From Nanobdellati archaeon (lineage in GTDB: Archaea; B1Sed10-29; JAGVWA01): 63,527 bases of DNA. This document shows positions 41,955 through 63,527 of this stretch, piece after piece. Both the position numbers and the translations under genes were made by a program. The stretch spans positions 1-63,527 of the forward strand of contig JAGVWA010000005.1 of the NCBI GenBank assembly GCA_018304505.1. Direction: 5' to 3'. The notes under the pieces were generated by a model. It saw only the letters and a list, made by a program, of their open reading frames with translations, was not told where the DNA came from and did no database searches. The first letter of the stretch is position 1; the number at the start of each line of letters is the position of its first letter.

Positions 41955-44360
41955 ATGAAGCGCGGCCAGGTTGCACTCGAATACCTAATCATTATTGGCG
42001 TTGTTCTAGCATTCCTTATCCCTATTGTACAACAGTCATTCACGACAACAAAGGCCACTATCCGGCTAGAAAAAACACAATCAAGCTTGCAGGGCCTCGA
42101 GGACGCCATCAACAGCGTTTACGTTTCAGGCCCAGGCAACAAGAAAACAGTCAAGGTGTACATTCCAGAATCGACAATATCCTCGAATGTGGCAAACAAC
42201 ACAATAATCTTGACAGTCAATGAACTTGGCGCAGAGTCTGACATCCTTCTAATAACCAAGACACTGCTCACCGGAAACCTGCCTCAAGAGCCAGGGGAAT
42301 ACAAGATCACTGTAGAGGCACTAGAAAACGGCACGGTCGCGCTCAATTACGTGTCCAGCTTACAGATTTCACCAGAGTACGCAGAAATAACAGTGCTGCC
42401 ACTGATACCTAAAATATACAACTTCTTGCTATACAACCCCTCAGCAGACCAAAGGGCAATCACTAACGTTACAATAACAGGCGAGATAGCTCCATTAGTG
42501 CAAGTCATTTCATTCCCGGAAACAATCGCGCCCGGGGCAACAGAGACCCTGACAATAGAAGTGCTTGCCCCAATAACCGCACCGCCCGGGCAATACAGCG
42601 GAGAGGTTTACGTGACCGGCAACCCGGACTCATTAATGGCCAACATTGCCATAATCGTGCTGCAGACCATCGGCAACATCAGCTTGCAAACCACCGACCC
42701 ATTAAGACAACCAAAATCTAATTTTACACAGGGCGAACTATTGGCGTACAACGTAAACGTGCTAGACCAAACAGGCCAGCCCATGCTTACAAACCAGATC
42801 GACGTGGAAATCCTGGATCCTGCCGGAACCTTAATGTACACAGTGCAAAACGAGACAATTGTCTACGGCGTTTACGAGAACTCTTACTTGATCAGTCAAA
42901 CAGGAACCCCGGGGTACTGGAGTATAACAGCAATAGCCCACGACGCAAACAGCAACATGCAAGCCATGCAAACGTTCTATGTAAACCCAGCAGGCAGCTC
43001 CAACGCGACACTCACATGCAACGACATGTATCCCTATCAAGCACTCGACTTCATGGGCAACGACTTACTAGCTGCAGTTCAAGTATCAGATGACAACCGC
43101 GCACTAATCGACCGCGTTCGTAAAGAGTACACTGGGCTCGAAATTGATCACCCTAACAACTATTTCGCATACTTTGGGGTATCAACTTCATTACAACCGC
43201 AAATGGGCGCAATCGATGCCGACATTTACACCGTCCTAGAGCCACAGATATTCAACAACCTCAGCTACTATGATTTAGTCATTCTGGAAAACCCGGGATT
43301 GTTCGACAGTGAACGGATTCAGGTTGAAAATTTCGTCGCCATGGGCGGCACTATAATAATGTCATCGTACCTCTTGCAAGCAAATATGGCCCCTGTACTT
43401 GGCATTGATTACGACGGCACTGGCGCTCAGACAGCCAGCGTGCTTGAGGTAATGCAGCCAGACCAGTACTTCAACTTCACTGTCGGCTCTACGTACACTG
43501 CAATGAGGGTCGCCAAGGTCACGGACACTTACATCCCTTCTAATGGGACCCTTGATGCACAGAACTTCCGGCAAATCGCCAGATCGCAATCAGGAAACGA
43601 CAACCTCATTGCACGTTGGAACTACGGCAACGGCACGGTGTATTACTTTTCCGAATTCGGCAACCCCGGCGCAGAGTTCAGGGAAAAAACCAAAAACGGC
43701 ATACTGAACATCCTAGGAAAGCTGTACAACAACGGCAAGACCAGGAACATGCAGGCCATGTTTGCCTCTCAAAACCAGGATTTGCTCGTAAACCTAACGC
43801 TCAGAGTAGAGCACCTTGAATCAAACGCGGGCGTTTCACTAAATGCACAGGTTGTCAACAAGACCGCGTCATGCGTATTACCCGGATCAACAACAGAAAC
43901 CACAGCACAGTGCACCCTTGCAGGATTGACTAGCCAAGACCTCGCGAACCTCAAACTGAATTTGTCATTCCCAACGACCATAGCAACAAAACAGTCTGCA
44001 CAAGTTGACAAAGTTTACATTACGGCGTGCAGCCAGCCCCTACTTTTACAAAATTCAGACATACAAAGCATCGGCATAAGCACCAACAGCGACACTTACG
44101 CAGTTGGAGGAACCGTGTTCTACAGCCTGTGGACCCTTGACGAAAATGAAGACCTTGATGATGGCAACCCGATACTCATTGAATTCAAAGACCCCGTGGG
44201 GGTTATTGCGCATAGTAAAATCGTCAACACGACCAACGGCCAATATTCAAGCTCATTCACACTGCCGATAACAGCCCATGTTGGAAAATGGGAAATTAAA
44301 GCCACAACATACAACAACCAGGAAGTGCTAATCGCACAAAGGAAATTCAACGTCAAGTAG
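41955..44360 (+). CDS. Large class III signal peptide (pilin-like) surface protein with Ig/MG2-like domains
   Basis: MKRG/QVALEYLIIIGVVL; two similar DPxG...GxWxIxA beta-sandwich repeats. Confidence 0.82.
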   Translation: MKRGQVALEYLIIIGVVLAFLIPIVQQSFTTTKATIRLEKTQSSLQGLEDAINSVYVSGPGNKKTVKVYIPESTISSNVANNTIILTVNELGAESDILLITKTLLTGNLPQEPGEYKITVEALENGTVALNYVSSLQISPEYAEITVLPLIPKIYNFLLYNPSADQRAITNVTITGEIAPLVQVISFPETIAPGATETLTIEVLAPITAPPGQYSGEVYVTGNPDSLMANIAIIVLQTIGNISLQTTDPLRQPKSNFTQGELLAYNVNVLDQTGQPMLTNQIDVEILDPAGTLMYTVQNETIVYGVYENSYLISQTGTPGYWSITAIAHDANSNMQAMQTFYVNPAGSSNATLTCNDMYPYQALDFMGNDLLAAVQVSDDNRALIDRVRKEYTGLEIDHPNNYFAYFGVSTSLQPQMGAIDADIYTVLEPQIFNNLSYYDLVILENPGLFDSERIQVENFVAMGGTIIMSSYLLQANMAPVLGIDYDGTGAQTASVLEVMQPDQYFNFTVGSTYTAMRVAKVTDTYIPSNGTLDAQNFRQIARSQSGNDNLIARWNYGNGTVYYFSEFGNPGAEFREKTKNGILNILGKLYNNGKTRNMQAMFASQNQDLLVNLTLRVEHLESNAGVSLNAQVVNKTASCVLPGSTTETTAQCTLAGLTSQDLANLKLNLSFPTTIATKQSAQVDKVYITACSQPLLLQNSDIQSIGISTNSDTYAVGGTVFYSLWTLDENEDLDDGNPILIEFKDPVGVIAHSKIVNTTNGQYSSSFTLPITAHVGKWEIKATTYNNQEVLIAQRKFNVK

Positions 44361-44371
44361 AAGTGCTAAAA

Positions 44372-44806
44372 ATGCGTGCCATTAAAGGACAGGCAAGCGT
44401 GGAGATACTAGTAATAATCTCACTGTTATCCCTGATTTTCCTACTAATGACAAACCACGGGATACAAATGAAAAACGAGGTTCAACAAACCCGAAACCTA
44501 ATCACGTTTGAAAAGAAGTGCATTGTTTTAAGTGAAATCATCACGAGTCTCATGAACGCGCAGGAAAACACCAGCCTCATTACCGTAATGACAGGCCACA
44601 CTGACATATATCCCAATGGCGAATCGAAAATTGGGGATGAAGAGTGCAATGTGCCAGGAGTATTCAATGCAACGTACACCCTGCTAGAAGGAAGCCACGC
44701 CAAATTCCAAAAGTCGAACGACAAAATCATCATTAGCGTGCTAAACGCTGGCCAGGAAGACATCGGCCTTGGTGATGGCATTGAGAGAGGATACCATGAA
44801 ATCTAA
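44372..44806 (+). CDS. Minor pilin-like protein
   Basis: IKG/QASVEILVII class III signal. Confidence 0.8.
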   Translation: MRAIKGQASVEILVIISLLSLIFLLMTNHGIQMKNEVQQTRNLITFEKKCIVLSEIITSLMNAQENTSLITVMTGHTDIYPNGESKIGDEECNVPGVFNATYTLLEGSHAKFQKSNDKIIISVLNAGQEDIGLGDGIERGYHEI

Positions 44807-45281
44807 AGGGCAGGCCCTGTCAGTAGAACTCACAGCCACGAGTTTAATATTCATTTTTCTGCTATCAGCAATCTACGTTTCGTGGAACAATACAGCCCTG
44901 TCGCTGGACGAACGGTACCTTGAAACCAAGTTCCTGTCAATATCAAACCAGGTTGCTGAACAGCTCATCAGCAATCAGGGACTCCCCACTGATTGGCAAG
45001 ACAATCCAGAAAACGCAACCCTCATCGGCTTGAACAAGAACTTTCAAGAAATCTCAAGAGAAAAACTCCTCGCGCTCATAGCGTTTGCAAACAATGACTA
45101 CCCGGCTACAAAGGAATTGCTGAATACGCAAGGCTTCGACTACATTCTCACTGTTAGGCGCCAGGGCGCAATAATCGCACAGGCAGGGCGACCAGCGGGC
45201 CATGACATCATCGTTACAAGGAGGACCATAATATATGAAAACGCGACCGCGACACTCGATGTCGGGATACACTCATCGTAA
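44796..45281 (+). CDS. Minor pilin-like protein
   Basis: KSKG/QALSVEL class III signal; GLPTDW motif. Confidence 0.8.
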   Translation: MKSKGQALSVELTATSLIFIFLLSAIYVSWNNTALSLDERYLETKFLSISNQVAEQLISNQGLPTDWQDNPENATLIGLNKNFQEISREKLLALIAFANNDYPATKELLNTQGFDYILTVRRQGAIIAQAGRPAGHDIIVTRRTIIYENATATLDVGIHSS

Positions 45282-45708
45282 AACAAGGGGGTTCGTGCTG
45301 TCCCTGGACGTGCTCCTAGCCTTCATTATAGTACTGACTATACTCTCATCCACCAATCAGATGATGCAAGATAGCGACCTCACCAAAACGCGTGAGGCCG
45401 TCGCCATGTCAAACAAGGCCAACGATGCAATGTCCATACTGCTGAAAAAAGGCACCCTCGAGACATTAAACCAGGGGATGCTTAATCAGGAGCTTCAAGG
45501 CATAATGGACAGCTCAGACAACTGGAGACTAATCATTTCACAGCACCAGCCCCCTAACTTCGAGGCGTCCTTCAGGCTTGAAACTGGACAGGCCACCACC
45601 CCACCATCAACATCCGCATCAGCAACAAGAACGTTCATCATCACGACAAACACGACAGACACGTACTACACCGCCCAGTTACGGGTATGGAAAACGGAGA
45701 TACAATGA
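45259..45708 (+). CDS. Minor pilin-like protein
   Basis: KTRG/FVLSLDVLLAFII class III signal. Confidence 0.78.
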   Translation: MSGYTHRKTRGFVLSLDVLLAFIIVLTILSSTNQMMQDSDLTKTREAVAMSNKANDAMSILLKKGTLETLNQGMLNQELQGIMDSSDNWRLIISQHQPPNFEASFRLETGQATTPPSTSASATRTFIITTNTTDTYYTAQLRVWKTEIQ

Positions 45709-46502
45709 AACGCGGCGTGCTTTATTCACTGTCATTGGCCATAATCGGCACCATCCTAATTAGCCTCGCAGCCACGTCCAATGGGCTCACCACAAACAAA
45801 AGCCACGCCAGTGAACTGCTACAGAAAATAAACCAGGAACACGCCAACATACAACTTGACTTCGAAACCATGCTCAAGAACAATTACTATCACAGCATCA
45901 CGAATCGAAACAACCTCCTAACAATAGAAGAGGAATTCAACTCCAGGTCAATGCCAAGCCAAAATTTACGAAACCGGCTGGATGCTTACAACAGCTTCCT
46001 GCAAACCACATCACAGGTGAACACGTCAATCGACACAACAACCATGACGAGCCCCGCAACATTCCAAATAGCGCCATACGGAATGATGTATACACGCAAT
46101 AGTTCATCAACGAAAATAAAAAACATCGAAAACATATCCGCGATATGGCTGGGAATCAACTTCGACAACAACACTGTAACTGGAATCGAAAACTCGACAA
46201 ACCCGGGCAGCATGGCCTTTACCCTAACAGTGGCCGAAAAATATAACGTCATAGCGGAACTGAACTTCAACATAGACCCAGACATGAACAACAACATCAC
46301 GATAAACCTCAACAACGGCTACGTTAGGATATACATAAAAACAATGGAACTAGAAATCACAGACTTAAAACCAGGAACCAGGACGCTGATTCAGCTCACC
46401 CCAACGTTGTTTCAGGGAATAATTATAAAGTCAGAAGCCGTGACAAACGCACAACACGAGAACATAAACATGTCCACAGTGCTCTGGACTGAAATCACCT
46501 GA
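45705..46502 (+). CDS. Minor pilin-like protein
   Basis: MKRG/VLYSLSLAII class III signal. Confidence 0.75.
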   Translation: MKRGVLYSLSLAIIGTILISLAATSNGLTTNKSHASELLQKINQEHANIQLDFETMLKNNYYHSITNRNNLLTIEEEFNSRSMPSQNLRNRLDAYNSFLQTTSQVNTSIDTTTMTSPATFQIAPYGMMYTRNSSSTKIKNIENISAIWLGINFDNNTVTGIENSTNPGSMAFTLTVAEKYNVIAELNFNIDPDMNNNITINLNNGYVRIYIKTMELEITDLKPGTRTLIQLTPTLFQGIIIKSEAVTNAQHENINMSTVLWTEIT

Positions 46503-46512
46503 GTGAATTAAA

Positions 46513-47370
46513 ATGAAGGACAACCTCATCGAAGAAATACTACACAAGATCGGCATCGGGAAGGCCACAAAAAAGGAAACTGAGCAGCTTACGCTTGTTT
46601 ATGGACTCCCGACAAAAATAATGAGGCAGAGAAAAAAACTCAGAATGTCGCGGCGTGAACTCGCCAACAAGATCGGCACACTAGAAAGCGTAATAAGGGG
46701 GCTGGAGGAAGCACGTATAATCCCCGAAAAAGACGCAGTCCTAGACCTAGAAAAAGCCCTGGGAATTCCGCTCTACACCGAACACAAGCACGTCATACAG
46801 AAAATGAAAAGGCACCATGCGAAAGTCCAAAAGAAAATCCTAACCACCAAATACATGGACAAGCTCGAAACCAAGTTCTTTCCCAAAATCCGGGAAAAAT
46901 ACAAGGAAAAAGCCCGCCGGGCAAACACCCGTACCAAGACAGAGCCAACCAAAAAAACTGAAAAGAAAAAAACCCCAGCAAGAAAGGGCACAGCAAAACG
47001 GGCCAAACCGAAATCCCTGGCAGTCAAAAAAACTACACGCAAAAAACGAGTGCCTCACGCGCCCGCACCGAAACAGAACGCAGACATACAAAAGAAGCTC
47101 ATAAAAGGCATTCATGACACACTCGACATGCTGGCTGAACGCAACGCCGCAACTTCTTTAAAAAACGTGGCTTCTGCACTCGATGTCACTCAACAAGAAG
47201 TGATAGAAGAAATTGGGAACGTCATAACGCAAGATGACTTTAAAATGCCAAAAGGAACCAGCATCCTAATCGAAGGACCCATAGAATCACAAAAAGAAAC
47301 CTTCACACAAGAAATCATACAACACCACCTAGCCCGTAATAAACCGATTTTTGTCAGGCGAAGAACGTGA
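46513..47370 (+). CDS. XRE/MBF1-like HTH, Lys-rich linker and start of a degenerate KaiC-like domain (fragment 1)
   Basis: RQRKKLRMSRRELANKIGTLESVIRGLEE; SILIEGPIESQKET pseudo-Walker A; frame breaks at about 47352. Confidence 0.7.
   Translation: MKDNLIEEILHKIGIGKATKKETEQLTLVYGLPTKIMRQRKKLRMSRRELANKIGTLESVIRGLEEARIIPEKDAVLDLEKALGIPLYTEHKHVIQKMKRHHAKVQKKILTTKYMDKLETKFFPKIREKYKEKARRANTRTKTEPTKKTEKKKTPARKGTAKRAKPKSLAVKKTTRKKRVPHAPAPKQNADIQKKLIKGIHDTLDMLAERNAATSLKNVASALDVTQQEVIEEIGNVITQDDFKMPKGTSILIEGPIESQKETFTQEIIQHHLARNKPIFVRRRT
47236..47334 (+). repeat. 99-bp block identical to 47951..48049
   Basis: GACTTTAAAATGCC...CACCACCTAGCC compared directly. Confidence 0.92.
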
Positions 47371-48109
47371 TGAAGCAGTCCGATTCATTAGCGCGAACAT
47401 CGACAAAATGAAAAGGAAAAACACAACGTCAATATTTTTGCTCCATTCCTCGATCGTTGACTCCAGACAACTAGCGTCAATAGAAACGCTTTTCGACGCA
47501 GTCATAACTTTCGAAACAAAACAGAATACGCGCGGCGAAGTCGAAAGCTACTACAAAATCAAAAGATTCAAAGGCCTAAACATCAAACCCCAACTGAAAA
47601 AATACAAGCCGCGGATTCTGCAAAAACAGACCGAACAAAAAATGCAGGAAACACCGCACGAAAATATTGTAACCCCCCCCAAACCGATTCAGAAAGCACG
47701 AGAAAAAGCGCCTCCACTAGAGATCCCCATACAAAGTTACACGTCCGGGGGAATACCAAAAGACATACCAAACGGCCTACAATCAGTTGATGACCAAGTC
47801 AGGGAAATACGCCAAGAAATCAGGGAAGAAAAACTCGTCGGCAACATAGACAAACTCCTCTCCGTCCTATCCCAAAAATCAGAAATCAACCTCAGCAAGA
47901 GCACGGAACAGGAGATCGTTGAGGAAATCGGAAACCTGATAACGCAAGACGACTTTAAAATGCCAAAAGGAACCAGCATCCTAATCGAAGGACCCATAGA
48001 ATCACAAAAAGAAACCTTCACACAAGAAATCATACAACACCACCTAGCCAAACCGAAACGTACAACATCAAAGACAACGGTCTCGTGCTGGCCCCCGCAG
48101 GCGAGATAA
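47351..48109 (+). pseudogene. Fragment 2 of the frameshifted tandem KaiC-like gene (end of copy 1, start of copy 2)
   Basis: SIETLFDAVITF...YKIKRFKG then a second EGPIESQKET; frame breaks again at about 48052; may be an assembly artefact. Confidence 0.65.
47529..47612 (+). repeat. 84-bp block identical to 48365..48448
   Basis: CGCGCGGCGAAGTCG...TACAAGCCGC compared directly. Confidence 0.92.
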
Positions 48110-48822
48110 ACGAAACTAACCTGACAATATCAGAGCAAGTCTCTGAAGACCCTGTGCTCTTAGTGGCGAACGTTCTCAACGTCTTGCTCCCTAAGTACAA
48201 CATAGAGGAAATAACAAAATTCACGTCCTACAACTTAAGCAAGCTAAAAAAGTCCGCGATAACTTCCATCTTCACCCTAGATGACGAAATAACTTCGGTA
48301 GGCGAAAAGAGCGCACTCGAGACCTTGTTTGATGCGATCATCAGCTTCGAAACAAAACAAAATGCGCGCGGCGAAGTCGAAAGCTACTACAAAATCAAAA
48401 GATTCAAAGGCCTAAACATCAAACCCCAACTGAAAAAATACAAGCCGCAAACCCATATGGCCAAGACTAAAAAGGACGCCGAAAAACCACTAGAAGCCCC
48501 TTTAGTTGTTGAGGGCCTCGCGCCAGAATCAGCATCGATATCCCCAACACTCATGATGAAACTTCCGGCAAAAATCAGGAAAGAACCAGAAGAAAAAAAG
48601 CAATACCCGCAGGAAGTAGAAACAATTAAAATAACAACCGGGTTAGACCAACTATACCAGGTTATCCGAGACAAAAAGACAATCAGGATAGACGCCGCAG
48701 CAAAGGCACTGCAAGTTGATGAGGGCACGATCGAAACCTGGGCAAACATACTGGAAAAGCAAAACCTCGTCAAAATAAGGTACCCATCGTTTGGGAAAAC
48801 TATAATAAGCGTGATAAGATGA
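48055..48822 (+). pseudogene. Fragment 3: end of KaiC-like copy 2 plus C-terminal winged helix
   Basis: ALETLFDAIISF; TGLDQLYQVIRDKKTIRIDAAAKALQV...WANILEKQNLVKIRYP. Confidence 0.65.
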
Positions 48823-50378
48823 CTGTAATAGATGCATATGAAATACAAGATGGTGAACTAAAAAGCCGCGTAGAGATAACAGAAAACGAGGACTTCGTAA
48901 AACGATACAATCTATCGGCCCTCCGGATCGACATCGGAACCAGGGCCCTGCTTGACGAAATTAAGGGAGAACTCATCTCTACCGTAACGTTGCAATCCGT
49001 AGAAATAATAGATCCAAACAAGCTGCAGGAAATCAAAAACAAATTCTATGACCAAATAGTCGCAATGCTGCAGCGAAAGGTCCCGGGCCTTCCAGAAAAA
49101 GAAACGTCCCTCCTTGTACGCTTCTTGCTCAATGAAATGCTCGGCCTCGGAGAACTGGAACTCCTACTGAAAGATGACTACCTCGAAGACATCGCCATAA
49201 ATACCTCCACAGAGCCCGTCTGGGCATACCACAGAAAACACGGCTGGCTCAAGACCAACATTGTGGTGCCTACTGAAGAGGACATCAAAAACTATGCAGG
49301 CATAATCGCTAGACGAGTAGGCAGGCAGATCACGAACCTCAACCCCTTGTTAGATGCTCATTTAGTGACACAGGAAAGGGCCAACGCCGTCCTTAACCCT
49401 ATTTCGAGCAAGGGCAACCTAATCACCATTAGGAAGTTCGCAAAGGAACCATGGACAATAACAGACTTCATTAACAACCGTACGCTGAATTCAGAAGTAG
49501 CAGCACTCCTATGGCAGGCAATCCAATACGAACTCAACATACTCGTCAGTGGAGGCACGGGCTCTGGAAAGACGTCAATGCTCAGCGTACTGTTGCCATT
49601 CATTCAGCCAAACCAACGCATCGTTTCAATTGAAGACACACGCGAAATCCAGCTGCCAAAATTCCTGTTCTGGTCGCCACTAACGACAAGGCCACCGAAT
49701 ATTGACAAGCGCGGCGAGATCACGATGCTTGACTTAATGATCAACTCCCTTAGAATGCGGCCAGACAGGATCGTTGTTGGAGAAATAAGAAGAGAACGGG
49801 AAGCAGAAACACTGTTCGAGGCCATGCATACTGGCCACGCGGTATACGCCACACTGCACGCAGACACCATAGACCAAACAATAAATCGGCTGAAGAACCC
49901 ACCAATCAATATACACCCCTCGCTCCTTGGTGCCATCGACCTAAACCTTGTCATGTTCAGGGACAGGCGAAGCGGCATACGCAGACTGCTACAACTCGGC
50001 ACTTACAACGTTTCTGAAAGAACCGACGTATCACAAGTGAGGGCCAATGTGCTGTACAAATGGAATCCAACAGACGATGCACTTGAACCCACAATAAAAG
50101 CAAAATCAACAGCCATACAAAACAAAATCAGGACATATACAAGCCTGACAGAACAAGAGCTTAACGACGACCTAGCGCAAAAACAGGCGATCCTCAACTG
50201 GCTAGTGAAAAACAACACGCGAAAAGTGGATGACATTGGAAGGCTAATAGCGGAGTATTATCTGGACCCCTCCGTAATCGAAACAGCTGCAAACAAAAAT
50301 AAGCCCCCTGAAGAGCTCTTGACACAAACTGGCAGAGTGGAGACTGGAGAAAAGCCCATGGGAGCGAAGAAGAAATGA
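48819..50378 (+). CDS. Type IV pilus / secretion ATPase (VirB11/CpaF/ArlI family)
   Basis: LEDIAIN, TIRKF, SGGTGSGKT, IEDTREI, SLRMRPDRIVVGEIR, TGHAVYATLHAD. Confidence 0.95.
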   Translation: MTVIDAYEIQDGELKSRVEITENEDFVKRYNLSALRIDIGTRALLDEIKGELISTVTLQSVEIIDPNKLQEIKNKFYDQIVAMLQRKVPGLPEKETSLLVRFLLNEMLGLGELELLLKDDYLEDIAINTSTEPVWAYHRKHGWLKTNIVVPTEEDIKNYAGIIARRVGRQITNLNPLLDAHLVTQERANAVLNPISSKGNLITIRKFAKEPWTITDFINNRTLNSEVAALLWQAIQYELNILVSGGTGSGKTSMLSVLLPFIQPNQRIVSIEDTREIQLPKFLFWSPLTTRPPNIDKRGEITMLDLMINSLRMRPDRIVVGEIRREREAETLFEAMHTGHAVYATLHADTIDQTINRLKNPPINIHPSLLGAIDLNLVMFRDRRSGIRRLLQLGTYNVSERTDVSQVRANVLYKWNPTDDALEPTIKAKSTAIQNKIRTYTSLTEQELNDDLAQKQAILNWLVKNNTRKVDDIGRLIAEYYLDPSVIETAANKNKPPEELLTQTGRVETGEKPMGAKKK

Positions 50379-51256
50379 TAATGATTCCATTCCTGCCGCT
50401 GCCATACAAGGTAACATTGGAACTCTCCAGGTTCCTGAGGCCAGCAGCGCAACGAATAGCATTTCTTTTTCCGGGCCTCGGAATGCAACTCAAACAAGCC
50501 GAGGTCGACATTCCAGCAACATCGTACCTGTCGATCGTTGTGTTCTCGTTCAGTGCCTTTAGCATTTTCTTTGCCGCTTTTTTTCTCCTGGTAGGATACT
50601 TCGCAGCATCACGCCAACTCTTACAACTGAGCCCACTGCTCGGTATAGGCATAGGCATTCTTGTGAGCCTCCAGCAGCTCGCATATCCCAAGATAATCAT
50701 TATACGCAAAGGACGCGGTGTTGACAGGAACTTAGTGTTTGCGCTGCGCAACCTGCTAATACAAATGAAGAGCGGCGTGCCCATGTTCGACGGCATCAAT
50801 GACATTGCAAAAGCAGACCACGGAGAACTATCAACAGAATTCGCCAAAGCTGTAAAAAAAATCGCTACTGGGGAACCCCCAGAAATGGTTTTTGAAGACC
50901 TAAGCAAAAACAACCCAAGTCCTTATTTGAGAAAGGTGCTGTGGCAACTATCAGACAGCCTCAAATCAGGCGGCGACATAACAACAACACTAGAGGAGAT
51001 AGTCGATAACCTGACAAAAGAACAATCAATACAAGTGAAAAAGTTTTCGTCTGTGCTAAACCCGATTATACTGATGTACATGATGATCGCCGTCATCGTC
51101 CCCTCCCTTGGAGTGAGCTTCCTTGTTGTGTTTTCCAGCTTTCCCGCCCTGAACATCACGGAATTCACGTTCACGGTACTCCTAGGCGTCATTACATTAA
51201 TTCAATTCATGTTCCTCGGTTCAGTGAGGTCGGCCACGCCGAAACTGTTAAGGTGA
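50375..51256 (+). CDS. T2SS-F/TadB-like pilus membrane platform protein
   Basis: T2SSF pattern (IQMKSGVP, GELSTEF, SLKSGGD) with TM helices. Confidence 0.9.
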   Translation: MIMIPFLPLPYKVTLELSRFLRPAAQRIAFLFPGLGMQLKQAEVDIPATSYLSIVVFSFSAFSIFFAAFFLLVGYFAASRQLLQLSPLLGIGIGILVSLQQLAYPKIIIIRKGRGVDRNLVFALRNLLIQMKSGVPMFDGINDIAKADHGELSTEFAKAVKKIATGEPPEMVFEDLSKNNPSPYLRKVLWQLSDSLKSGGDITTTLEEIVDNLTKEQSIQVKKFSSVLNPIILMYMMIAVIVPSLGVSFLVVFSSFPALNITEFTFTVLLGVITLIQFMFLGSVRSATPKLLR

Positions 51257-52230
51257 AACCAATGGATGTATTCGAAAAAATCGGGAGCATTTTCCCTGGA
51301 AAACTCAAGGACCTTTACGCCTTAAACCTCAAGCAGTCATACATCAAAAGCACCGCCGAAAAATACCTGGGAATCTCAATTGTGGGCAGCATTGGGCTCA
51401 CCGCAATCGTGACAGCATACCTCAGCCTGTTCAGCACACTAACGATTTACCACGCACTCGGCGCATTCCTTGTAATGAACGGCGTGTTCTACTTCAACCT
51501 CTCATTGTCAGTCGACAAGAAAACGCGCGACGTAAACACGTCTCTCCCGGACGCACTGCAGCTCATGGCAACCAACCTGCGGGCAGGCTTTACACCTGAC
51601 AAGGCCCTGTTCCTCAGCGCAAAAGAAGAATTTGGGCCACTGGAAGAAATCCTAAAGCAAGCTGGCAAAGAAATCTTGTCGGGGACAACAATGGAAGCGG
51701 CACTTAAAAATATGAACAACCAAGTAAGCTCTGAAAAGCTTGAAACGGTAACGCAACTAATAACGCAAGGCATCAAAGCAGGCGGAGAACTTTCAGAACT
51801 CCTAGACCATACAGCGATTGACATACAAGACGAAGCAATACGTGAAAAAGAACTCAAGGCAAGCATACTGCTCTACAGCATACTTATTTTTATTGCCATC
51901 GCGTTTGGAGGCCCATTCCTGTTTGGTGTCTCTTCATTACTGACACAAACACTAAAAGGCCTCCTAGGAACACCACAAGGGCCAGCAGTTATTTCCAATC
52001 TCCCTGTGAGCATGGGCGAGATAAAAATATCAGAGCAATTCATGCTCGACTTTTCAATAGCCGCCCTGCTGATAAGTTCAATATCAGGCAGCCTCATCAT
52101 TGGGCTTATACAAGGCGGCAAAGAAAAGCAGGGCCTGAAACTCCTCCCAATCATTTTGGCCATTTCCATGATAGTTTTCTATGGAACCCGCGTTTTACTA
52201 GCAGGCATGCTTAGCAATGTGTTTGCATAA
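51253..52230 (+). CDS. T2SS-F/TadC-like pilus membrane platform protein
   Basis: LPDALQLMATNLRAGFTP, EFGPL, GIKAGGEL. Confidence 0.92.
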   Translation: MKPMDVFEKIGSIFPGKLKDLYALNLKQSYIKSTAEKYLGISIVGSIGLTAIVTAYLSLFSTLTIYHALGAFLVMNGVFYFNLSLSVDKKTRDVNTSLPDALQLMATNLRAGFTPDKALFLSAKEEFGPLEEILKQAGKEILSGTTMEAALKNMNNQVSSEKLETVTQLITQGIKAGGELSELLDHTAIDIQDEAIREKELKASILLYSILIFIAIAFGGPFLFGVSSLLTQTLKGLLGTPQGPAVISNLPVSMGEIKISEQFMLDFSIAALLISSISGSLIIGLIQGGKEKQGLKLLPIILAISMIVFYGTRVLLAGMLSNVFA

Positions 52231-52309
52231 CTCGTTGCAAAACCCGTCTCCAGCACAAAAACTGGCAAACCTTTATAAATAGACCCTGAATGAGTAATAA
52301 CGTGAGTAT

Positions 52310-52762
52310 ATGAAGGGACAGAGTGCACTAGAGTACCTAACAACCTATGGCTGGGCAATAGGTATAATAGTGATTGTCGTAGCAGCAATGTTCGCACTAG
52401 GCATCCTGAACCCAAGCACCTACACCAGTGACTCTTGTGTCGGTTTCGGCAAGCTGCCTTACCAGGAACACAAGGTAGACACAGATGGCATACTGACGCT
52501 GGTGCTCAAAAACGGGGTCGGCAGAAGCATATCAATAACAACAATGACAGTTACGCCGCAAGGTGGAACAGAGCAAACAGTGTTTACTAGCAACACGACC
52601 GTAGCACCACTAGCAGACATAACACTGGTAGCAGAAACAGGCGCAACAGGCTGGACAGGCACTGCTGGCGAAGCATACCAAGGAACAGTATCCGTGCTCT
52701 ACGACACAGCATCAATAACGGCAAACAGGGAAAGCGGCAGTTGCACAGGCGCGCTAGAATAA
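52310..52762 (+). CDS. Major-type class III pilin
   Basis: MKG/QSALEYLTTYGWAI...LGILNP; own TATA box upstream. Confidence 0.9.
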   Translation: MKGQSALEYLTTYGWAIGIIVIVVAAMFALGILNPSTYTSDSCVGFGKLPYQEHKVDTDGILTLVLKNGVGRSISITTMTVTPQGGTEQTVFTSNTTVAPLADITLVAETGATGWTGTAGEAYQGTVSVLYDTASITANRESGSCTGALE

Positions 52763-52810
52763 ATCGCGCTTGTCAAACCAATTCTTTTTCTACTGCCTTT
52801 TTATTCACAA

Positions 52811-53425
52811 ATGGGTTTAATAAAAAGCAGTGAAACAAAAATGACGCAAGAAGAAGTACTACTCGTAGACGACTCAGACACGCCCATAGGCAGGATGGAA
52901 AAAATCCGCGCTCATGAGGAAGGACAACTGCACAGGGCCTTTTCAATCTTCATCTACAACGACAAAAACGAGATGCTGCTCCAGAGACGCGCGCACTCCA
53001 AGTACCACTCTCCGGGCTTATGGACAAACACCTGCTGCAGCCATCCACGGCCTCACGAGGACACAAAAGACGCGGCGCACAGAAAACTACAGCAAGAGAT
53101 GGGCTTTGACACAAAGCTACATGAAGTATTCTCATTCATTTACAAGGCCCCATTTGATAATGGCCTTACAGAACACGAATTTGACCATGTTTTCATGGGG
53201 CTCTACAACGAAAACCCTCAAATAAATCCAGAAGAGGCCTCGGAATACAAGTGGATTTCAATCCCGGACCTCAAGAGCGACATGAAACAAAACCCGCAAA
53301 ACTACACTGCATGGTTCAAAATCGCAATCGAAAGCCACCCCGAAACGCTTCTGGGAAAAAACCACGCAGAATCTGATTTTCAAGCATCATCCGAGAGCGG
53401 GAATAAAGAAATAATAGAGCTCTAG
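52811..53425 (+). CDS. idi: Type 1 (Nudix) isopentenyl-diphosphate isomerase
   Basis: AHEEGQLHRAFSIF, LLQRR, WTNTCCSHP, EHEFDHVF, NPEEA, TAWF. Confidence 0.95.
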   Translation: MGLIKSSETKMTQEEVLLVDDSDTPIGRMEKIRAHEEGQLHRAFSIFIYNDKNEMLLQRRAHSKYHSPGLWTNTCCSHPRPHEDTKDAAHRKLQQEMGFDTKLHEVFSFIYKAPFDNGLTEHEFDHVFMGLYNENPQINPEEASEYKWISIPDLKSDMKQNPQNYTAWFKIAIESHPETLLGKNHAESDFQASSESGNKEIIEL

Positions 53426-53989
53426 CCACGTCAACACAAAGCCTAGCAGCGTCCCAAGAGCAATCTGTGCACCAGTGTGTGCCTTCAATGCATAGCGCGC
53501 CCAGGCCACGAGTGCAACCACTGGCAAGAGCCACAAAGCTGCTAGACCAAAAACATGATACAACACCACTAAAGGTCCAGCTGTGCCGATCATGTGCACG
53601 CTCGATTTGTATTTCAAGTTAATCAGGAACATGAAAAAAGTGTTGACGAAGTAAATCAGCAACAGCGACGTTACGAGAAATGGCGCCTTCAGGTTCAACA
53701 GAAAAACGCCGCCAAGCAAGTAACTCAGGCCGCCGTAGGCGAAAATCCGATTTCTCTTTTTCTGGTCAAACACATGGAAATCCGGAATCCTGCCTAGCTT
53801 GAACTCGCGCCATATTACGAGCGCGGGGCCAACAAAACCAAAAACCAAATAAACAATGAAGTAAACCCACCAATCCGGCATCCCGTAGCCAAACAACAGC
53901 ACTGCTAGGAAGACATACAGGCTAACGAACAATGCGTTGAACGCCCACGAAATGAACCTCGCCAGGTTTTTGACCTTCATCATAGTCAT
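53387..53989 (-). CDS. PAP2-like integral membrane phosphatase
   Basis: KSSVH and WARYALKAHT motifs among TM helices. Confidence 0.72.
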   Translation of the reverse strand: MTMMKVKNLARFISWAFNALFVSLYVFLAVLLFGYGMPDWWVYFIVYLVFGFVGPALVIWREFKLGRIPDFHVFDQKKRNRIFAYGGLSYLLGGVFLLNLKAPFLVTSLLLIYFVNTFFMFLINLKYKSSVHMIGTAGPLVVLYHVFGLAALWLLPVVALVAWARYALKAHTGAQIALGTLLGFVLTWLELYYFFIPALG

Positions 53990-54034
53990 TAAGAGAATTA
54001 CATATTTAAAGCCTAAAGGGCACATACACCAAAG

Positions 54035-57836: not shown

Positions 57837-58232
57837 TCAGTTGACGACGCTAACTAAACCATTAAAACCAGCGTCGTATGTCATTATATGAGTTATTCCG
57901 TGGTTTTCCATGAGCGCTATATTTGTGCAGTCTGTAAAACTTAGCTTCTTGTGTTTCTTGAAGAGTTTCCAAGATTTTTCAAACGTCTCAGAGTCTACAA
58001 ATATCATCTCAAGTTTATCTAGAATTTTTTGGCCAAAGGCCGTTATCTTCTCATGATTCTTAAAACGTCGAAATGCGAAAGTCACGGTCTCATCAAAAAT
58101 ATAGTCTGAAACAAAAACTGCGCCGAATTTACCGCCCAAGACCTCTTTCATTTTCTCATAAACTGTCGCGTGTGATTTCTCCTCCTTACTGAGATATGCG
58201 ATAAAGGCAGATGTGTCAATCAAAATAGACAT
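57837..58232 (-). CDS. vapC: VapC PIN-domain toxin
   Basis: ILIDTSAF, DET, LSFTDC, TYD. Confidence 0.92.
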   Translation of the reverse strand: MSILIDTSAFIAYLSKEEKSHATVYEKMKEVLGGKFGAVFVSDYIFDETVTFAFRRFKNHEKITAFGQKILDKLEMIFVDSETFEKSWKLFKKHKKLSFTDCTNIALMENHGITHIMTYDAGFNGLVSVVN

Positions 58233-58235
58233 TTT

Positions 58236-58478
58236 TCATCCCTCATAAAGGACTTTGTCTATCTCAGATATTGCGTCTGTAGAACCGATATGAAAATTTA
58301 TGGGCTTAAACTCAAGAAATTCTTTTGGATTCTTACGCGGTTTTTCTTCCTTCGCCCATTTTTCGAGCGCTCTGTTTACGGCGATTCCTAAACTAATCCC
58401 CAACTCAGCACTTCTTGCCTTGGCCATCATATACACACCCGTTTCTATTCCGCGAATGCACACTGTTGTACTTGTCAT
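58236..58478 (-). CDS. vapB: Putative VapB antitoxin (RHH-like)
   Basis: Small ORF immediately upstream of VapC; IRGI...AVNRALEKW. Confidence 0.75.
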   Translation of the reverse strand: MTSTTVCIRGIETGVYMMAKARSAELGISLGIAVNRALEKWAKEEKPRKNPKEFLEFKPINFHIGSTDAISEIDKVLYEG

Positions 58479-58534
58479 ACATGTTTTACATGTTTAACCT
58501 ATAAAAACTTTTTGGTATAAGAAAAAAAAGGGTT

Positions 58535-58666
58535 TTAAGCCGTCACTTGCATGACGTGCTTTGGAACAACTAGGTCTGTTGAGAGGAAGGCGAAGTGCTT
58601 TCTCTCGATCTTGAGGTTCCAGTCCAAGCCCCTGGCTTGCTCAATTAGGTCTTTTAGTCTCATCAT
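58535..58666 (-). CDS. 43-aa hypothetical peptide (below ORF-track cutoff)
   Basis: MMRLKDLIEQARGLDWNLKIERKHFAFLSTDLVVPKHVMQVTA; TATAAA and GGACGTGA upstream, poly-T after stop. Confidence 0.5.
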   Translation of the reverse strand: MMRLKDLIEQARGLDWNLKIERKHFAFLSTDLVVPKHVMQVTA

Positions 58667-58724
58667 TTTTGTTCACGTCCTGACCAATGTATGTTTATAG
58701 TGGTTTTGTAGTGATCATGGTGGC

Positions 58725-58765
58725 TGCATGACAAGCCCCCCTTGGCCGAGGGGGCTTGTTATGCA
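58725..58765. other. Strong 41-nt GC-rich hairpin
   Basis: TGCATGACAAGCCCC...GGGGCTTGTTATGCA. Confidence 0.75.
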
Positions 58766-59023
58766 TTAAACTACGAGCTCAAATAACGCAGGGGTTTTTG
58801 TGCTCAGTGCGAATTTTCTGGAGGAAACGGAGGTGACGTTCCTATCACTACTTACCGTACGTTTGTTTATATACCAAAACTAGTAAGCAACTTTCCGAGA
58901 ACTTCCCGGGTAACGGTTTTTGCTTTCCGAGAATTTAGGTACTCACTGAAATCACAAAGTACGAGCGCCCATGTTTGGAATTAAAACCGGAACTTGACTG
59001 CACTCAACACGAAGTAACGGGGT

Positions 59024-59311
59024 TCAGATTTCGTCAGGATCAACGAAATCGTCATCGAGATTTTTGGCTGCGCATTCAAAATCATGGCGCTGCAATCCAG
59101 CGTCGTCAATTCTTCCCGCGAGATAATGCACTAGCCCGTCTCTTCTAACTTCTCTTGCCCTGCCGATCATTGATTCCCTGCGGTCGATTTCCTTGTCAAT
59201 GTTATCCATCGCGGCACTGAGTAGTTTCCTTGCCAATTCCTGGTGGCCTGTTTCGGACAGTAGTTCTGCGGCCCCCATCACTGAATCTGCACAATCGCTG
59301 TTCATCCACAT
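59024..59311 (-). CDS. Small orphan protein, Met-Trp-start family (MW-12)
   Basis: 95 aa MWMNSDC...; GGAGGT SD; similar N-terminal helices to MW-13. Confidence 0.75.
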   Translation of the reverse strand: MWMNSDCADSVMGAAELLSETGHQELARKLLSAAMDNIDKEIDRRESMIGRAREVRRDGLVHYLAGRIDDAGLQRHDFECAAKNLDDDFVDPDEI

Positions 59312-59327
59312 AACAAAACCTCCAAAG

Positions 59328-59582
59328 TTACTTTTTTAATTGCTGAGCAAGTTCGTTTGACTGTGCAGCCAACTGCTCCTGCTGTTGCCAGCATTCTCCT
59401 GCTTTTGCCATGTCTCCCATGGCTTGTGCCAGTGTCTCATCTGTTATCAGGAGCGAGCGCTCTTCAACTATTTGCTCCAGGCCGCCCCAGAGTAATTCAT
59501 GCGCTTCGCTTTTTCCCCCAACTTTCCTGAGTTGTGCTGCTGTTTCTATTATCGCGTCTTTAAAATCATCAGTTATCCACAT
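59328..59582 (-). CDS. Small orphan protein, Met-Trp-start family (MW-13)
   Basis: 84 aa from ATG-TGG at 59582 after GGGGGATG. Confidence 0.72.
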   Translation of the reverse strand: MWITDDFKDAIIETAAQLRKVGGKSEAHELLWGGLEQIVEERSLLITDETLAQAMGDMAKAGECWQQQEQLAAQSNELAQQLKK

Positions 59583-59662
59583 GCGTTCATCCCCCATATG
59601 TATTGTTGCCATAACGTTTGGGCAATGAAGTATAAAAAACATCTGTATGCACCTTGGGTTGC

Positions 59663-60064
59663 CTATTCATCCCAGCTTACCGTGCCTGTTTTTGGTTTGG
59701 TTGGGTCTGTAGATGCGGTTGGGTGTGCCACGGGAATGGCTGGTTTTGAGGCCTCCCTTGTAGGCGCCTCAGGCACATGCTCCTCTGCAAGTGTTTTCGG
59801 TAATGTGTCAAGGTCCTCGAGCTCCTTGATGGCGAGTTTACCCAGGTTACGGAAGCGCTGTCTTTTGCTGTTCAATACTGCACCTTCGAGAAATCGCGAG
59901 GCTCCATAGACGTCAATTGTTGCTGTGTGCGCTACACCACGCTCTTGCTCAACTCCACCGAGGTGGTTCCAGGCCTGCTGCAGGTTTTGCCTTGCAACTG
60001 GCTCTACAAGCAGCATGGCACCCATTTTTCTCATCGCCACCTTGGCTTCCTCAACGCTCCACAT
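59663..60064 (-). CDS. Small orphan protein, Met-Trp-start family (MW-14)
   Basis: 133 aa MWSVEEA...; Pro/Thr-rich tail ending SWDE. Confidence 0.7.
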   Translation of the reverse strand: MWSVEEAKVAMRKMGAMLLVEPVARQNLQQAWNHLGGVEQERGVAHTATIDVYGASRFLEGAVLNSKRQRFRNLGKLAIKELEDLDTLPKTLAEEHVPEAPTREASKPAIPVAHPTASTDPTKPKTGTVSWDE

Positions 60065-60269
60065 ATTCATCAATGTTCCACATGTTCTTATCACACCATT
60101 ATGCCACTTCTATTTTCCGCGTCCTGCGCTCACACACGAACATATTTGCATTTTGGATGTATTTAAAGCTTCACACGAATTCACCAAGCCTGGTTTGAAC
60201 TGGTTTGAACAAGTTGCAACCAGCTAACGTTGCAAAATTGACTTAAATGCACTTCGCTATAACTATAAC

Positions 60270-60683
60270 ATGTACTACATCGACACGTGCGTTTACATGG
60301 ACCTGTGGCGAAAAGACGCCGATCCAAAAAGACAGGACGCAGCAAAGCAGTTTATTGAAAAATGCATCGATGACCAAAGCACGATCTATTACTCAGGCTT
60401 TGTGTTGAAAGAGCTGTGGTATAACCTTGAGCATGCTGATTTCGCCAACGCGCGCGCGTTGTTCAATACTATAAACTTTGAGAAGTTAATCGCCACAAAA
60501 CAAGACCGTACCAAAGGCATGATCCTCAGGTGGGACGCGAGCCCGGACTTGAGCTTTTTCGACTGCATGCACATTGTTCTGAGCAGAAACACCAAGTCAA
60601 TGCTTGTAACACAAGACAAGCCCCTGATAAGACATGCCAAGTGGAATAACTGCCGGGCATCCAAACCTGAGGGCTTGCTATAA
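60270..60683 (+). CDS. PIN-domain (VapC-like) protein
   Basis: YIDTCVY, KEL, FFDCMH, VTQDK. Confidence 0.85.
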   Translation: MYYIDTCVYMDLWRKDADPKRQDAAKQFIEKCIDDQSTIYYSGFVLKELWYNLEHADFANARALFNTINFEKLIATKQDRTKGMILRWDASPDLSFFDCMHIVLSRNTKSMLVTQDKPLIRHAKWNNCRASKPEGLL

Positions 60684-62195: not shown

Positions 62196-63527
62196 ATGGA
62201 GCATAGTTCCACAACCCGAGCAGCAAAGACCAAGAAGAAACCAACCCTAAACCAACAACAAGAAGCCGCACGCAGAGCAACACTAGCGAGACTACAAACG
62301 CTCCAAAAAAAAGCACATGCTAAAGAAATCAAGCTCGGCGCACTCAAAAGATTAGCGCTAGCCCGACGCATCAAACAACTGCAAAGAGAAAAGATAACGC
62401 TGCGAACTCTTGCACAAGCAGAAAAAGCCGAACCACGACTAGCCGCAGCAGCAAAGCCAACATCAAGACCAATGCCTAAGCCAAGAAAAATAAGGACTCC
62501 ACAAACAACAAGATCAAGAACAATCGCCCCCGTAGCCAAGCCAGCGCCAACAGCAACTAAACCTGCTGCAAGACCAACCAGTCCAATAGCAATAAAACCA
62601 AGACACCCACCCACAAGACTAACACGATTTTTCAGAGAACCAACACCCCCTACAGGGGGGGGTATAACGCCAAGCGCGGCAAGACCACAACTCCCCGGGG
62701 GAAGGGTTCCGCTGCGCCTCGACACGCGAGCAGAATTACGACTAGGACCATTAGAAAAAGCAGCTGAAAAGGAAAAAGCAGAAACCGCAAAGGCAATAAA
62801 AGAAAAACAAGAAGCAGAAAAAGCATTAGATGACCTACTCGCAAAAGCAGAAGTCGAACTAAAGCCAGAATACAAGCAGGCCCTCACAACAAAAGAAGTC
62901 ATGGACTTCGCACAACAACTCACAACAGACACTGCAAGGCAATACTTCGACGCAATCGCGCGACACGGAACAGAAAAACTCACCACCAAAGAATTCATGG
63001 ACTTCACCCAACAACTCCCACCAAACACTGCAGAACAATACTTCAACGCAATCGCGCGACACGGAACAGAAAAACTCACAACAAAAGAAGTCATGGACTT
63101 CGCCCAACAACTCACAACAGACACTGCAAGGCAATACTTCAACGCAATCGCGCGACACGGAACAGAAAAACTCACAACCAAAGAAGTTCTAACCACAGAA
63201 GTAGCAAAATTCGCACAACAACTAGACTACGGTGCAAGGTATTACTTCAACGCAATCGCGCGACACGGAACAGAAAAACTCACAACCAAAGAAATCATGG
63301 ACTTCACCCAACAACTCCCACCAAACACTACATGGCAATACTTCAACGCAATCGCAAAACACGGGGTGGAGCGACTAGTAAGCAAAGGATTTGTTACTGG
63401 CGTTGGTCGTGTTTTTGATGGCTTTGTGACGACAGAAGCCATGAGAAGCACATTTATGGATAATTTACTCACCATTGATGACAGGATTTCTGAACGAGTC
63501 ATGAGCCAAACCGAAAGCGCCAGCAGA
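62196..63527 (+). CDS. Partial large protein: basic/Pro-rich N-terminus plus 32-aa helical repeats (runs off the window)
   Basis: Open from ATG 62196 to the window end by hand translation; missed by the ORF track because no stop is present. Confidence 0.8.
   Translation, partial: MEHSSTTRAAKTKKKPTLNQQQEAARRATLARLQTLQKKAHAKEIKLGALKRLALARRIKQLQREKITLRTLAQAEKAEPRLAAAAKPTSRPMPKPRKIRTPQTTRSRTIAPVAKPAPTATKPAARPTSPIAIKPRHPPTRLTRFFREPTPPTGGGITPSAARPQLPGGRVPLRLDTRAELRLGPLEKAAEKEKAETAKAIKEKQEAEKALDDLLAKAEVELKPEYKQALTTKEVMDFAQQLTTDTARQYFDAIARHGTEKLTTKEFMDFTQQLPPNTAEQYFNAIARHGTEKLTTKEVMDFAQQLTTDTARQYFNAIARHGTEKLTTKEVLTTEVAKFAQQLDYGARYYFNAIARHGTEKLTTKEIMDFTQQLPPNTTWQYFNAIAKHGVERLVSKGFVTGVGRVFDGFVTTEAMRSTFMDNLLTIDDRISERVMSQTESASR
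62883..63374 (+). repeat. Five in-frame tandem units (96, 96, 96, 108, about 96 bp)
   Basis: Units start at 62883, 62979, 63075, 63171, 63279; LTTKEVMDFAQQLTTDTARQYFxAIARHGTEK. Confidence 0.95.

Follow-up and report, generated by a model that had tools for sequence, protein, structure and literature searches.

The 63,527-nucleotide stretch of contig JAGVWA010000005.1 analysed here (the window) comes from an uncultured DPANN archaeon, a Woesearchaeote, whose sequence recurs in several aquifer and soil metagenome assemblies. Near its end three small genes, MW-14, MW-13 and MW-12, lie in that order on the minus strand as an operon of small, soluble, lineage-restricted proteins, each beginning with Met-Trp (MW; ATG-TGG), and they belong to a wider class of genes in the window whose Met-Trp signature is real and strongly non-random. 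A fourth, 10-codon ATG-TGG open reading frame (ORF), the micro-ORF, overlaps the start of MW-14. Our joint reading, which we hold tentatively and at somewhat less than even confidence, is that this lineage-restricted operon carries a decoy micro-ORF that would have been born from a duplication, that Trp 2 of the class would be a selected signature with its determinant on the protein, and that the adjacency of toxin-antitoxin (TA) genes would come from co-accumulation.

Met-Trp Genes across the Window

A scan for ATG-TGG ORFs of at least 40 aa gave 14, the basis of the earlier numbering (MW-12 to MW-14). One, at 16279-16497, was rejected as a spurious antisense ORF, and a scan of GTG and TTG starts added two MW genes with strong Shine-Dalgarno (SD) sequences, at 1786-2127 and 13980-14156. 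The hexamer ATGTGG itself occurs at about chance frequency in the window (32 sites vs ~31 expected from base composition, by our own estimate). Among mechanical ORFs (first ATG, at least 60 aa) 11 of 203 in the window start with MW, compared with 6 of 650 and 6 of 1280 in other archaeal loci (comparison pool 12/1930, background 0.5-0.9%; Fisher p = 2e-6). When the window's genes are split by precomputed Pfam annotation of the public gene calls, about 15 of the ~33 genes with no Pfam domain start with MW (GTG being the start codon in two), as against none of the Pfam-bearing genes; nor is there an MW start among the 15 genes that a 10-kb extension of this contig adds. The MW genes lie mainly on the strand opposite to the core genes, as three tight trios (4379-5291, 31822-32807 and 59024-60064) and singles (Table 1), and their mean SD pairing is stronger than that of the other genes tested (−9.8 vs −4.8 kcal/mol; for all pairing energies the anti-SD tail is an assumed generic archaeal one, not read from the host's own 16S). 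Their SDs read GGAGG, GGGGG or GGAGGTG; many other genes use a GGTGAT-type site or look leaderless.

One fast-diverging paralogous family, descended from a single Met-Trp ancestor, could in principle yield such a pattern with no special role for the signature, MW being kept as Met1 is obligatory and Trp the least mutable residue, but we consider this unlikely. Similarity among the MW genes is confined to pairs, namely 1786-2127 with 2839-3189 (BLASTP 33% identity, E 1e-12, with MWDK at both starts despite GTG vs ATG), MW-12 with MW-13 and, marginally, MW-14 with 31822 (29% identity across 31 N-terminal aa, with E 0.005-0.008 from very small databases) and 4379 with 23970 (an outlier of the in-register comparison). 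These pairs, the similar size of the three trios and the fact that the small MW proteins are all soluble and mostly acidic favor common descent. Against it, profile-profile comparison with hhalign assigns the three best-defined MW subgroups probabilities of 0.2-3.4% with one another, the N-termini of all MW pairs compared in register are no more alike than shuffled sequences (p = 0.09), lengths run from 58 to 287 aa with one member basic, and the related pairs do not sit at matching trio positions. Moreover, W2 is kept in ~70% of small ORFans while other positions randomize. That Trp 2 persists in most small family-less genes while the rest differs, and survives a change from ATG to GTG, implies selection on Trp 2 or on UGG at +4 to +6, an argument from sequence that should hold with or without ancient common ancestry of the MW genes. 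Upstream of the MW starts no nucleotide conservation was found beyond the SD, and gene birth by frameshifted duplication was rejected, tblastx giving no out-of-frame similarity between MW genes.

On the preferred reading W2 would be under selection as an N-terminal signature of the organism's accessory small proteins. The mechanism we favor, unproven as it is, would be a protein-level determinant in which the Met is retained and, with the bulky residue after it, influences stability, modification or partner recognition; the alternative would be a Trp-tRNA gate at codon 2. Met before a bulky residue such as Trp would be retained, and N-termini of this kind are acetylated by NatC-type enzymes. 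A recognized N-degron of eukaryotes consists of an N-terminal Met with a bulky hydrophobic residue, which can be Trp, at position 2 (PMC4050130), and the likeness to these Met-hydrophobic N-degrons and NatC substrates lies in the use of such an N-terminus as a signal; the readers (Ubr1/UBR, Ac/N-recognins) are, however, eukaryotic with no archaeal equivalent known, which makes this an analogy only. A further-reaching proposal would be that the Met-Trp N-terminus (NUG-UGG), together with an unusually strong SD, is a selected tag on otherwise unrelated small accessory proteins, making up about half of the family-less genes and read either on the protein (stability, modification, targeting) or on the ribosome (Trp-tRNA gating); we regard this version as rather doubtful.

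The Trio at 59024-60064

All four ATG-TGG ORFs named in the initial annotation, with starts at 59311, 59582 and 60064 and, for the 10-codon ORF, at 60083, were recovered. Public gene callers call the three trio genes with differing starts, giving 84 or 94 aa for MW-13 and 133 or 135 aa for MW-14; the in-frame alternatives are ATG 59612 for MW-13 (yielding the 94 aa) and ATG 60070 and GTG 60094 for MW-14. With a codon model trained on the window's confident genes (training range 0.08-0.55 bits/codon), the own frame tops all six in each case, at 0.23, 0.39 and 0.20 bits/codon for MW-12, MW-13 and MW-14, respectively. AT skew flips at the trio, leaving its strand A-rich, as on all coding strands here. 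The inter-ORF gaps measure 80 nt (MW-14/MW-13) and 16 nt (MW-13 stop to MW-12 start), SD pairing amounts to −10.5 kcal/mol for both MW-12 and MW-13, and the MW-14 start at 60064 lacks an SD (−4.5 kcal/mol). All three proteins are soluble, MW-14 with an isoelectric point (pI) of 6.4. No RNA runs containing the locus were found.

In a k-mer-seeded HMMER search of 5.8e9 proteins all three queries returned the same strain only. Exhaustive phmmer of MW-12 against 1.84e9 representatives returned itself and one protein, P0004, which we rejected as a repeat protein whose score was inflated by five weak repeat matches. No MW protein, in the trio or elsewhere, matched Pfam, PHROG, PADLOC or NCBIfam above threshold, PHROG matches appearing only at E ≥ 0.009 and the PADLOC defence models matching neither nine MW proteins nor the 43-aa ORF at 58535-58666. 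A viral origin was likewise set aside after three IMG/VR scans (of the trio, with MW-14 only) without a relative, a weak negative given that DPANN viruses are poorly sampled.

The AlphaFold2 (AF2) models of MW-14 and MW-12 are predicted to be all-helical. For MW-14, whose model is of low confidence, three helices are followed from about residue 87 by a low-confidence, probably disordered Pro/Thr/Ala-rich tail (predicted local distance difference test, pLDDT, 61), and MW-12 is modeled as helix 5-20, a turn, helix 24-71 and helix 75-85 (pLDDT 68.8 overall and 84-90 over residues 10-40). Foldseek of the MW-12 model against PDB and BFVD gave no match at E < 1, the best being single tetratricopeptide repeat (TPR)-type hairpins. 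The N-termini of MW-12 and MW-13 align with 29% identity over 41 aa, and of the columns proposed for them in the initial annotation M1, W2, D6, D9, A15, L18, G22, A27, L30 and L31 were reproduced, whereas the final Ile falls at 38, not 35. The Smith-Waterman score is 57 vs 26.9 ± 5.1 for shuffled sequences (p ~5e-4, or p = 0.013 with MW removed), the in-register comparison gives p ~1e-4, phmmer gives E = 0.013 in a database of 249 ORFs, and default BLASTP of MW-12 vs MW-13 finds nothing. On this alignment and the model, MW-12 and MW-13 are weak tandem paralogues with a common predicted N-terminal α-hairpin, their similarity being real but weak, and the alignment fits tandem duplication of a hairpin-forming N-terminus. 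Their shared columns (A..L...G....A..LL) and predicted helix-turn-helix resemble one TPR-type hairpin; they differ from TPR-like and DUF7273 proteins in that the Pfam DUF7273 match reaches E 0.011 and 16 bits vs a cut-off of 31, all Foldseek matches have E > 1, and there is one hairpin and no repeat array.

Micro-ORF and the 19-nt Duplication

The micro-ORF is out of frame with MW-14 and overlaps its start by 14 nt (stop 60051-60053, MW-14 start 60064). It had been credited with the better SD, and this proved correct: pairing is the strongest of the four candidate starts (−7.3 kcal/mol at 60083, −4.5 at 60064, −3.3 at 60070 and −4.3 at 60094), and the spacing of GTGA, 7 nt and ATG at 60083 is the same as in the window's housekeeping ribosome-binding sites (RBSs; e.g. 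GGTGATAAAACA-ATG at 22526). The two starts fall in the two units of a 19-nt tandem repeat, which on the minus strand read ATGTGGAACATTGATGAAT (60083-60065) and ATGTGGAGCGTTGAGGAAG (60064-60046) and are identical at 15 of 19 positions. Such tandems number 9 in the window vs 1.0 ± 1.2 in Markov simulations (own scan), a ninefold excess by which they are taken as real duplication events rather than chance. As dropping the first unit would set the MW-14 ATG at the ideal RBS distance, the simplest history is a 19-nt duplication of the MW-14 start, of which the micro-ORF would be the upstream unit, put out of frame because 19 is not a multiple of 3 (19 mod 3 = 1). The four differences between the units point to an old event, the MW-14 frame staying open meanwhile. 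Copies of the micro-ORF in the sequence collections are all identical and of the same strain.

The upstream copy would have kept the RBS, and ribosomes recruited there would synthesize the 10-residue peptide and terminate 14 nt beyond the MW-14 AUG; the micro-ORF would act mainly as a decoy start that cuts MW-14 output, with at most inefficient backward reinitiation. Overlapping upstream ORFs (uORFs) and translational coupling by termination-reinitiation have been described by Huber et al. in 2019 and 2023 (reviewed in PMC12548453). To be efficient, termination-reinitiation coupling needs −4 to +3 nt, and it declines more steeply with overlap than with spacing (PMC12548453), and the micro-ORF/MW-14 spacing of −14 nt lies outside the efficient range. 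The locus is like the coupled genes of that review in having, on the same mRNA, a short ORF with a good RBS that ends within the start region of the next ORF, and unlike them in its 14-nt overlap and in a uORF that would be born from an out-of-frame 19-nt duplication of the downstream gene's own start (PMC12548453).

In the initial annotation, the micro-ORF was taken as a hint that the MW codon pair itself has a translational role. Spelled out, UGG at codon 2 would gate translation by Trp-tRNA supply, with the MW micro-ORF as a leader controlling MW-14 initiation, and we judge this distinctly improbable. DPANN archaea are generally without amino-acid synthesis, which makes a Trp-dependent gate conceivable, the micro-ORF, which overlaps the MW-14 start, has the best RBS, unusually strong SDs are common to the MW genes, and the kept element could be RNA (NUG-UGG), as it is found with both ATG and GTG starts. 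However, the micro-ORF is accounted for by the 19-nt tandem duplication, from which it would have inherited its MW. Its peptide contains a single Trp, at codon 2, with neither a Trp run nor a stalling motif and with no tie to Trp metabolism; the RNA over 60135-60020 folds at −17.6 kcal/mol (z = −0.40 vs shuffles) and shows no alternative structure; no such uORF occurs at the other listed MW genes; the literature searched gave no precedent; and with −14 nt of overlap little coupling would be expected (PMC12548453). With the trpL attenuator and TnaC the locus has in common a short Trp-containing peptide encoded ahead of (putatively) regulated genes, but it differs from them in its one Trp at codon 2, in the absence of tandem Trp or stalling motif and of a terminator/antiterminator, in downstream genes that are not Trp genes and in its archaeal host. 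As a sign of a translational role for the MW pair the micro-ORF thus falls away, and we infer that it diverts ribosomes from MW-14 rather than sensing Trp; UGG at codon 2 may still have a translational role across the MW class as a whole.

Accessory Pocket and Toxin-Antitoxin Genes

The window is chromosomal, with ribosomal-protein operons, aIF2, SecY-type neighbors, a type IV pilus-like locus, PurO, diphthamide synthase and TYW1. The trio pocket sits between conserved housekeeping genes, with PurO and diphthamide synthase to one side and TYW1 to the other, and also carries a vapBC-like pair, a solitary PIN gene (PIN2) and a solitary ribbon-helix-helix (RHH) gene. The earlier description of vapBC on one side and PIN/RHH on the other stands as far as both PIN domains and RHH_1 are confirmed, the acidic quartet of PIN-domain toxins being present in the translations of PIN1 and PIN2. 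It does not stand for the 80-aa vapB-like partner at 58236-58478, which has no match in Pfam, NCBIfam or PDB and is an antitoxin only by position, nor for PIN2 (+) and the RHH gene (−), which are convergent with a 6-nt 3' overlap and for that reason neither an operon nor a canonical pair. PIN2 itself has no co-directional upstream antitoxin ORF.

Three TA-type loci adjoin MW genes: MazEF at 3258-3882, the vapBC-like pair and PIN2/RHH. The adjacency of TA and MW genes which the initial annotation had emphasized is not significant within the window, its chance probability being ~0.07 by our own rough estimate (~19% of genes are MW), and four MW clusters have no toxin nearby. Adjacency is expected anyway if accessory genes simply occupy the same permissive sites, and on the preferred reading it would reflect their co-accumulation there. 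That the trio is functionally part of the flanking TA/defence modules, with for example an acidic trio protein as the missing PIN2 antitoxin acting through the common divergent control region, appears very unlikely. PIN2 without its antitoxin, the convergent RHH gene, the position of MW-14 and PIN2 on either side of the same 175-nt region with tandem and repeated motifs, and the acidic MW-12 and MW-13 and predicted disordered MW-14 tail, as often in antitoxins, are compatible with it; set against these are the trio proteins themselves, none of which matches a PADLOC or TA family, the MW clusters at 23970, 13980 and 31822-32807, which have no adjacent toxin, and the non-significant adjacency.

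Within the divergent region (60095-60269), the TATA-like TTTAAATA (~60161-60168) would serve the minus strand and ACTTAAATG (~60241-60249) PIN2, assignments drawn from archaeal TATA spacing; a bacterial promoter scan is uninformative for an archaeal locus. On the plus strand 60190-60235 holds a perfect 10-nt tandem of CTGGTTTGAA (two copies, 60190-60210), followed by two copies of GTTGCAA 16 nt apart. These repeats may be candidate operator sites, e.g. for the RHH protein. At 58478-58495 a perfect 9-nt tandem, two copies of TACATGTTT, abuts the vapB-like start codon, and its core, ACATGT, is found again at the PIN2 start (60268-60275); a candidate operator motif may be common to both PIN loci.

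The view of the MW genes as a variable repertoire receives weak support from the absence of homologues and from the single-nucleotide polymorphism (SNP) density, ~5-fold above the flanks, but it is not borne out by presence/absence joints, none of which occurs in assembled contigs. What does hold is that the MW genes form a strongly non-random class here, in accessory pockets that also hold TA genes. Among strain contigs, 11 SNPs fall in the trio vs 7 in 3-fold more flanking sequence, and most are nonsynonymous; they lie at 59334-59539 and 60013-60024, in the C-terminal third of MW-13, where one contig has six in 47 nt, and in the N-terminus of MW-14, and MW-12 has none. This excess is suggestive of relaxed or diversifying evolution. 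Across the island the assembled contigs of four DNA runs gave no presence/absence joints and flat depth, and the contig breaks near 61016, considered as island variation, are actually variant TYW1 sequence.

Several other origins were considered and rejected. Mutagenesis of the diversity-generating retroelement type does not fit, the clustered MW-13 SNPs not being adenine-specific. A 23-nt inverted pair (58481-58503/60258-60280), examined as a mobile-element boundary, is just 74% complementary and lies in two AT-rich promoter regions, and no convincing flanking repeats of a mobile element were found around the trio. An integron-type cassette array is contradicted by the lack of an integrase among the window's Pfam-annotated genes and of common imperfect palindromes in the trio gaps (80 and 16 nt). 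The pocket is most like accessory islets with type II TA systems (VapBC, MazEF), with which it shares small lineage-specific genes beside PIN, RHH and MazEF between housekeeping operons, mostly in opposite orientation to the core genes. It is unlike them in having no integrase, tRNA-adjacent att site, flanking direct repeat or presence/absence polymorphism, in the convergent arrangement of PIN2/RHH, and in cargo genes with a common Met-Trp start, undescribed for islets.

By the TYW1 gene the closest genomes in GTDB are Woesearchaeota metagenome-assembled genomes at no more than 70% identity, and by diphthamide synthase/DPH6 the closest relatives in metagenomes reach at most 61%. None of these TYW1 and DPH6 relatives has neighbor genes in common with the window, so no comparative genomics or synteny is possible for the trio locus.

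Weighing the Reading

That the ORFs are non-functional, as chance ORFs or remnants in decay on a GT-rich strand with frequent ATGTGG, is extremely unlikely: ATGTGG makes up 2.1% of minus-strand ATGs vs 0.65% of plus-strand ones, one of the 14 ORFs (16279-16497) is spurious, no homologues exist anywhere, pN/pS is near neutral and the MW-14 start is disrupted by the duplication, but the ORFs are situated in intergenic gaps and not antisense to genes, the local AT skew changes sign and makes their own strand the A-rich one, as in coding strands here, their own frame is the best of six, SD pairing reaches at least −6.8 kcal/mol in strength in 12 of 15 vs at least −6 in 14% of all minus-strand ATGs, and operon spacing is tight (0-16 nt).

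Several points nevertheless weigh against the joint reading that we prefer. All of it rests on one strain, and to our knowledge no archaeal mechanism reads a Met-Trp N-terminus. Some MW candidates are weak, those at 4659-4904 and 51-299 having negative coding scores, and the trio SNP excess leans on the one contig with six clustered changes. With respect to the duplication, the 19-nt units differ at 4 of 19 positions and similar 5' codons (MWx[IV][DE][DE]) also occur in MW-13 (15/18 nt) and in 31822-32148; the resemblance of the units could thus be partly convergent, perhaps, and the start in use is a candidate only. A transcription start site near 60088 would leave the SD outside the mRNA, the promoter position being itself a candidate, and the SD energies depend on the assumed tail instead of the organism's 16S.

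Other Features of the Window

The features are collected in Table 1. The middle gene of the third trio (4659-4904) is the weakest candidate, with no SD and uncalled publicly, and public calls start the 1786-2127 gene at a GTG three codons upstream, within the SD. Two proteins of the second trio, 32149-32454 (−) and 32457-32807 (−), end in ...FHGGG and ...ELGGE, respectively, which recalls the ubiquitin-like C-terminal Gly-Gly, probably by chance. The MazF ORF (3523-3882) is uncalled in the public contigs examined, and a PIN_9-domain gene at 19176-19532 (+), overlapping the end of the aIF2-gamma gene, appears to be a housekeeping-operon member, not a TA module.

Table 1. Coordinates of the Met-Trp genes, the micro-ORF region and neighboring features in the window
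Feature	Position	Strand	Remarks
MW gene, 82 aa	51-299	-	ATG-TGG scan
MWDK... paralogue, 113 aa	1786-2127	+	GTG start; with 2839-3189 flanks acylphosphatase gene
MWDK... paralogue, 116 aa	2839-3189	+	ATG start; with 1786-2127 flanks acylphosphatase gene
MazE/AbrB-MazF pair	3258-3882	+	between two MW clusters
Third MW trio	4379-5291	-	91, 81, 82 aa
MW gene, 58 aa	13980-14156	-	GTG start, SD GGGGGTGA
MW gene, 68 aa	23970-24176	-	very acidic (pI 4.05); ATG-TGG scan
Second MW trio	31822-32807	-	tight operon; 116, 101, 108 aa; strong SDs in all
Basic MW protein, 287 aa	32915-33778	+	divergent from second trio
PIN1	57837-58232	-	Pfam PIN E 7.5e-17; D6/E48/D101/D120
80-aa partner upstream of PIN1	58236-58478	-	ends 4 nt from PIN1; vapBC-like pair is 57837-58478
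43-aa ORF	58535-58666	-	called in all public assemblies; no family match
357-nt non-coding spacer downstream of MW-12	58667-59023	-	16-bp GC-rich hairpin 58725-58765
MW-12	59024-59311	-	ATG-TGG start at 59311, 95 aa, pI 4.5, SD GGAGG
MW-13	59328-59582	-	ATG-TGG start at 59582, 84 aa, pI 4.5, SD GGGGGA
MW-14, first cistron	59663-60064	-	ATG-TGG start at 60064, 133 aa (MWSVEEAK...)
19-nt tandem repeat, 2.2 copies	60047-60087	-	Tandem Repeats Finder (TRF): period 19, 81% matches, score 54
Micro-ORF MWNIDEYVER	60051-60083	-	ATG TGG AAC ATT GAT GAA TAT GTG GAG CGT TGA
SD-like GGTGTGAT	60090-60097	-	GTGA 7 nt ahead of ATG 60083
Divergent control region, MW operon/PIN2	60095-60269	.	175 nt
PIN2	60270-60683	+	Pfam PIN E 3e-10; acidic set D5/E48/D98/D116
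RHH protein (CopG/NikR-N/ParD-like), 85 aa	60678-60935	-	RHH_1 confirmed

The spacer downstream of MW-12 (58667-59023) contains two AATTCTCGGAAAG copies (58891-58936), 32 nt apart, and, on the minus strand, an anti-SD-like pair of CACCUCC and CCUCC. Neither an Rfam family nor a significant overall fold was found for it, the sole sub-threshold Rfam match (eiav_FSE) being dismissed as chance.

The A-over-T skew of the coding strands is very strong over 2000-31000 and 42000-54000 (+), with an AT skew of up to 0.46 in 2-kb windows, owing to which the coding strand can be read there from composition alone. At the far end of the window an ORF at 62196-63527 (+), running off it, has a basic N-terminal part and, after it, 4.8 or more copies of a 32-aa (96-nt) repeat (LTTKEVMDFAQQL...YFNAIARHGTEK); over this repeat the contig depth is 40-130x vs ~11x elsewhere, which points to a repeat that is multi-copy or common to other community members. 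Compared with a 76-kb public contig, the window differs by indels, with a break around 441-450 in the 3' end of the gene for Asp-tRNA synthetase (416-aa ORF vs 452 aa) and a 9-nt AAAACAACA indel at 2597-2605 in the acylphosphatase gene.

Implications

Taken by itself, the trio is an ordinary case of unannotated small genes beside toxin-antitoxin genes in a DPANN genome. The micro-ORF, if its proposed history is right, would be a clear example of a short out-of-frame tandem duplication that turns a gene's own start into a decoy uORF. Should the Met-Trp signature prove genome-wide, a simple sequence rule would define the class and imply common regulation, fate or origin, and would give a handle on the "dark" small proteins that form much of DPANN genomes; and if the tag proposed above is real, it would amount to a proteome-wide two-residue N-terminal code in an archaeon.

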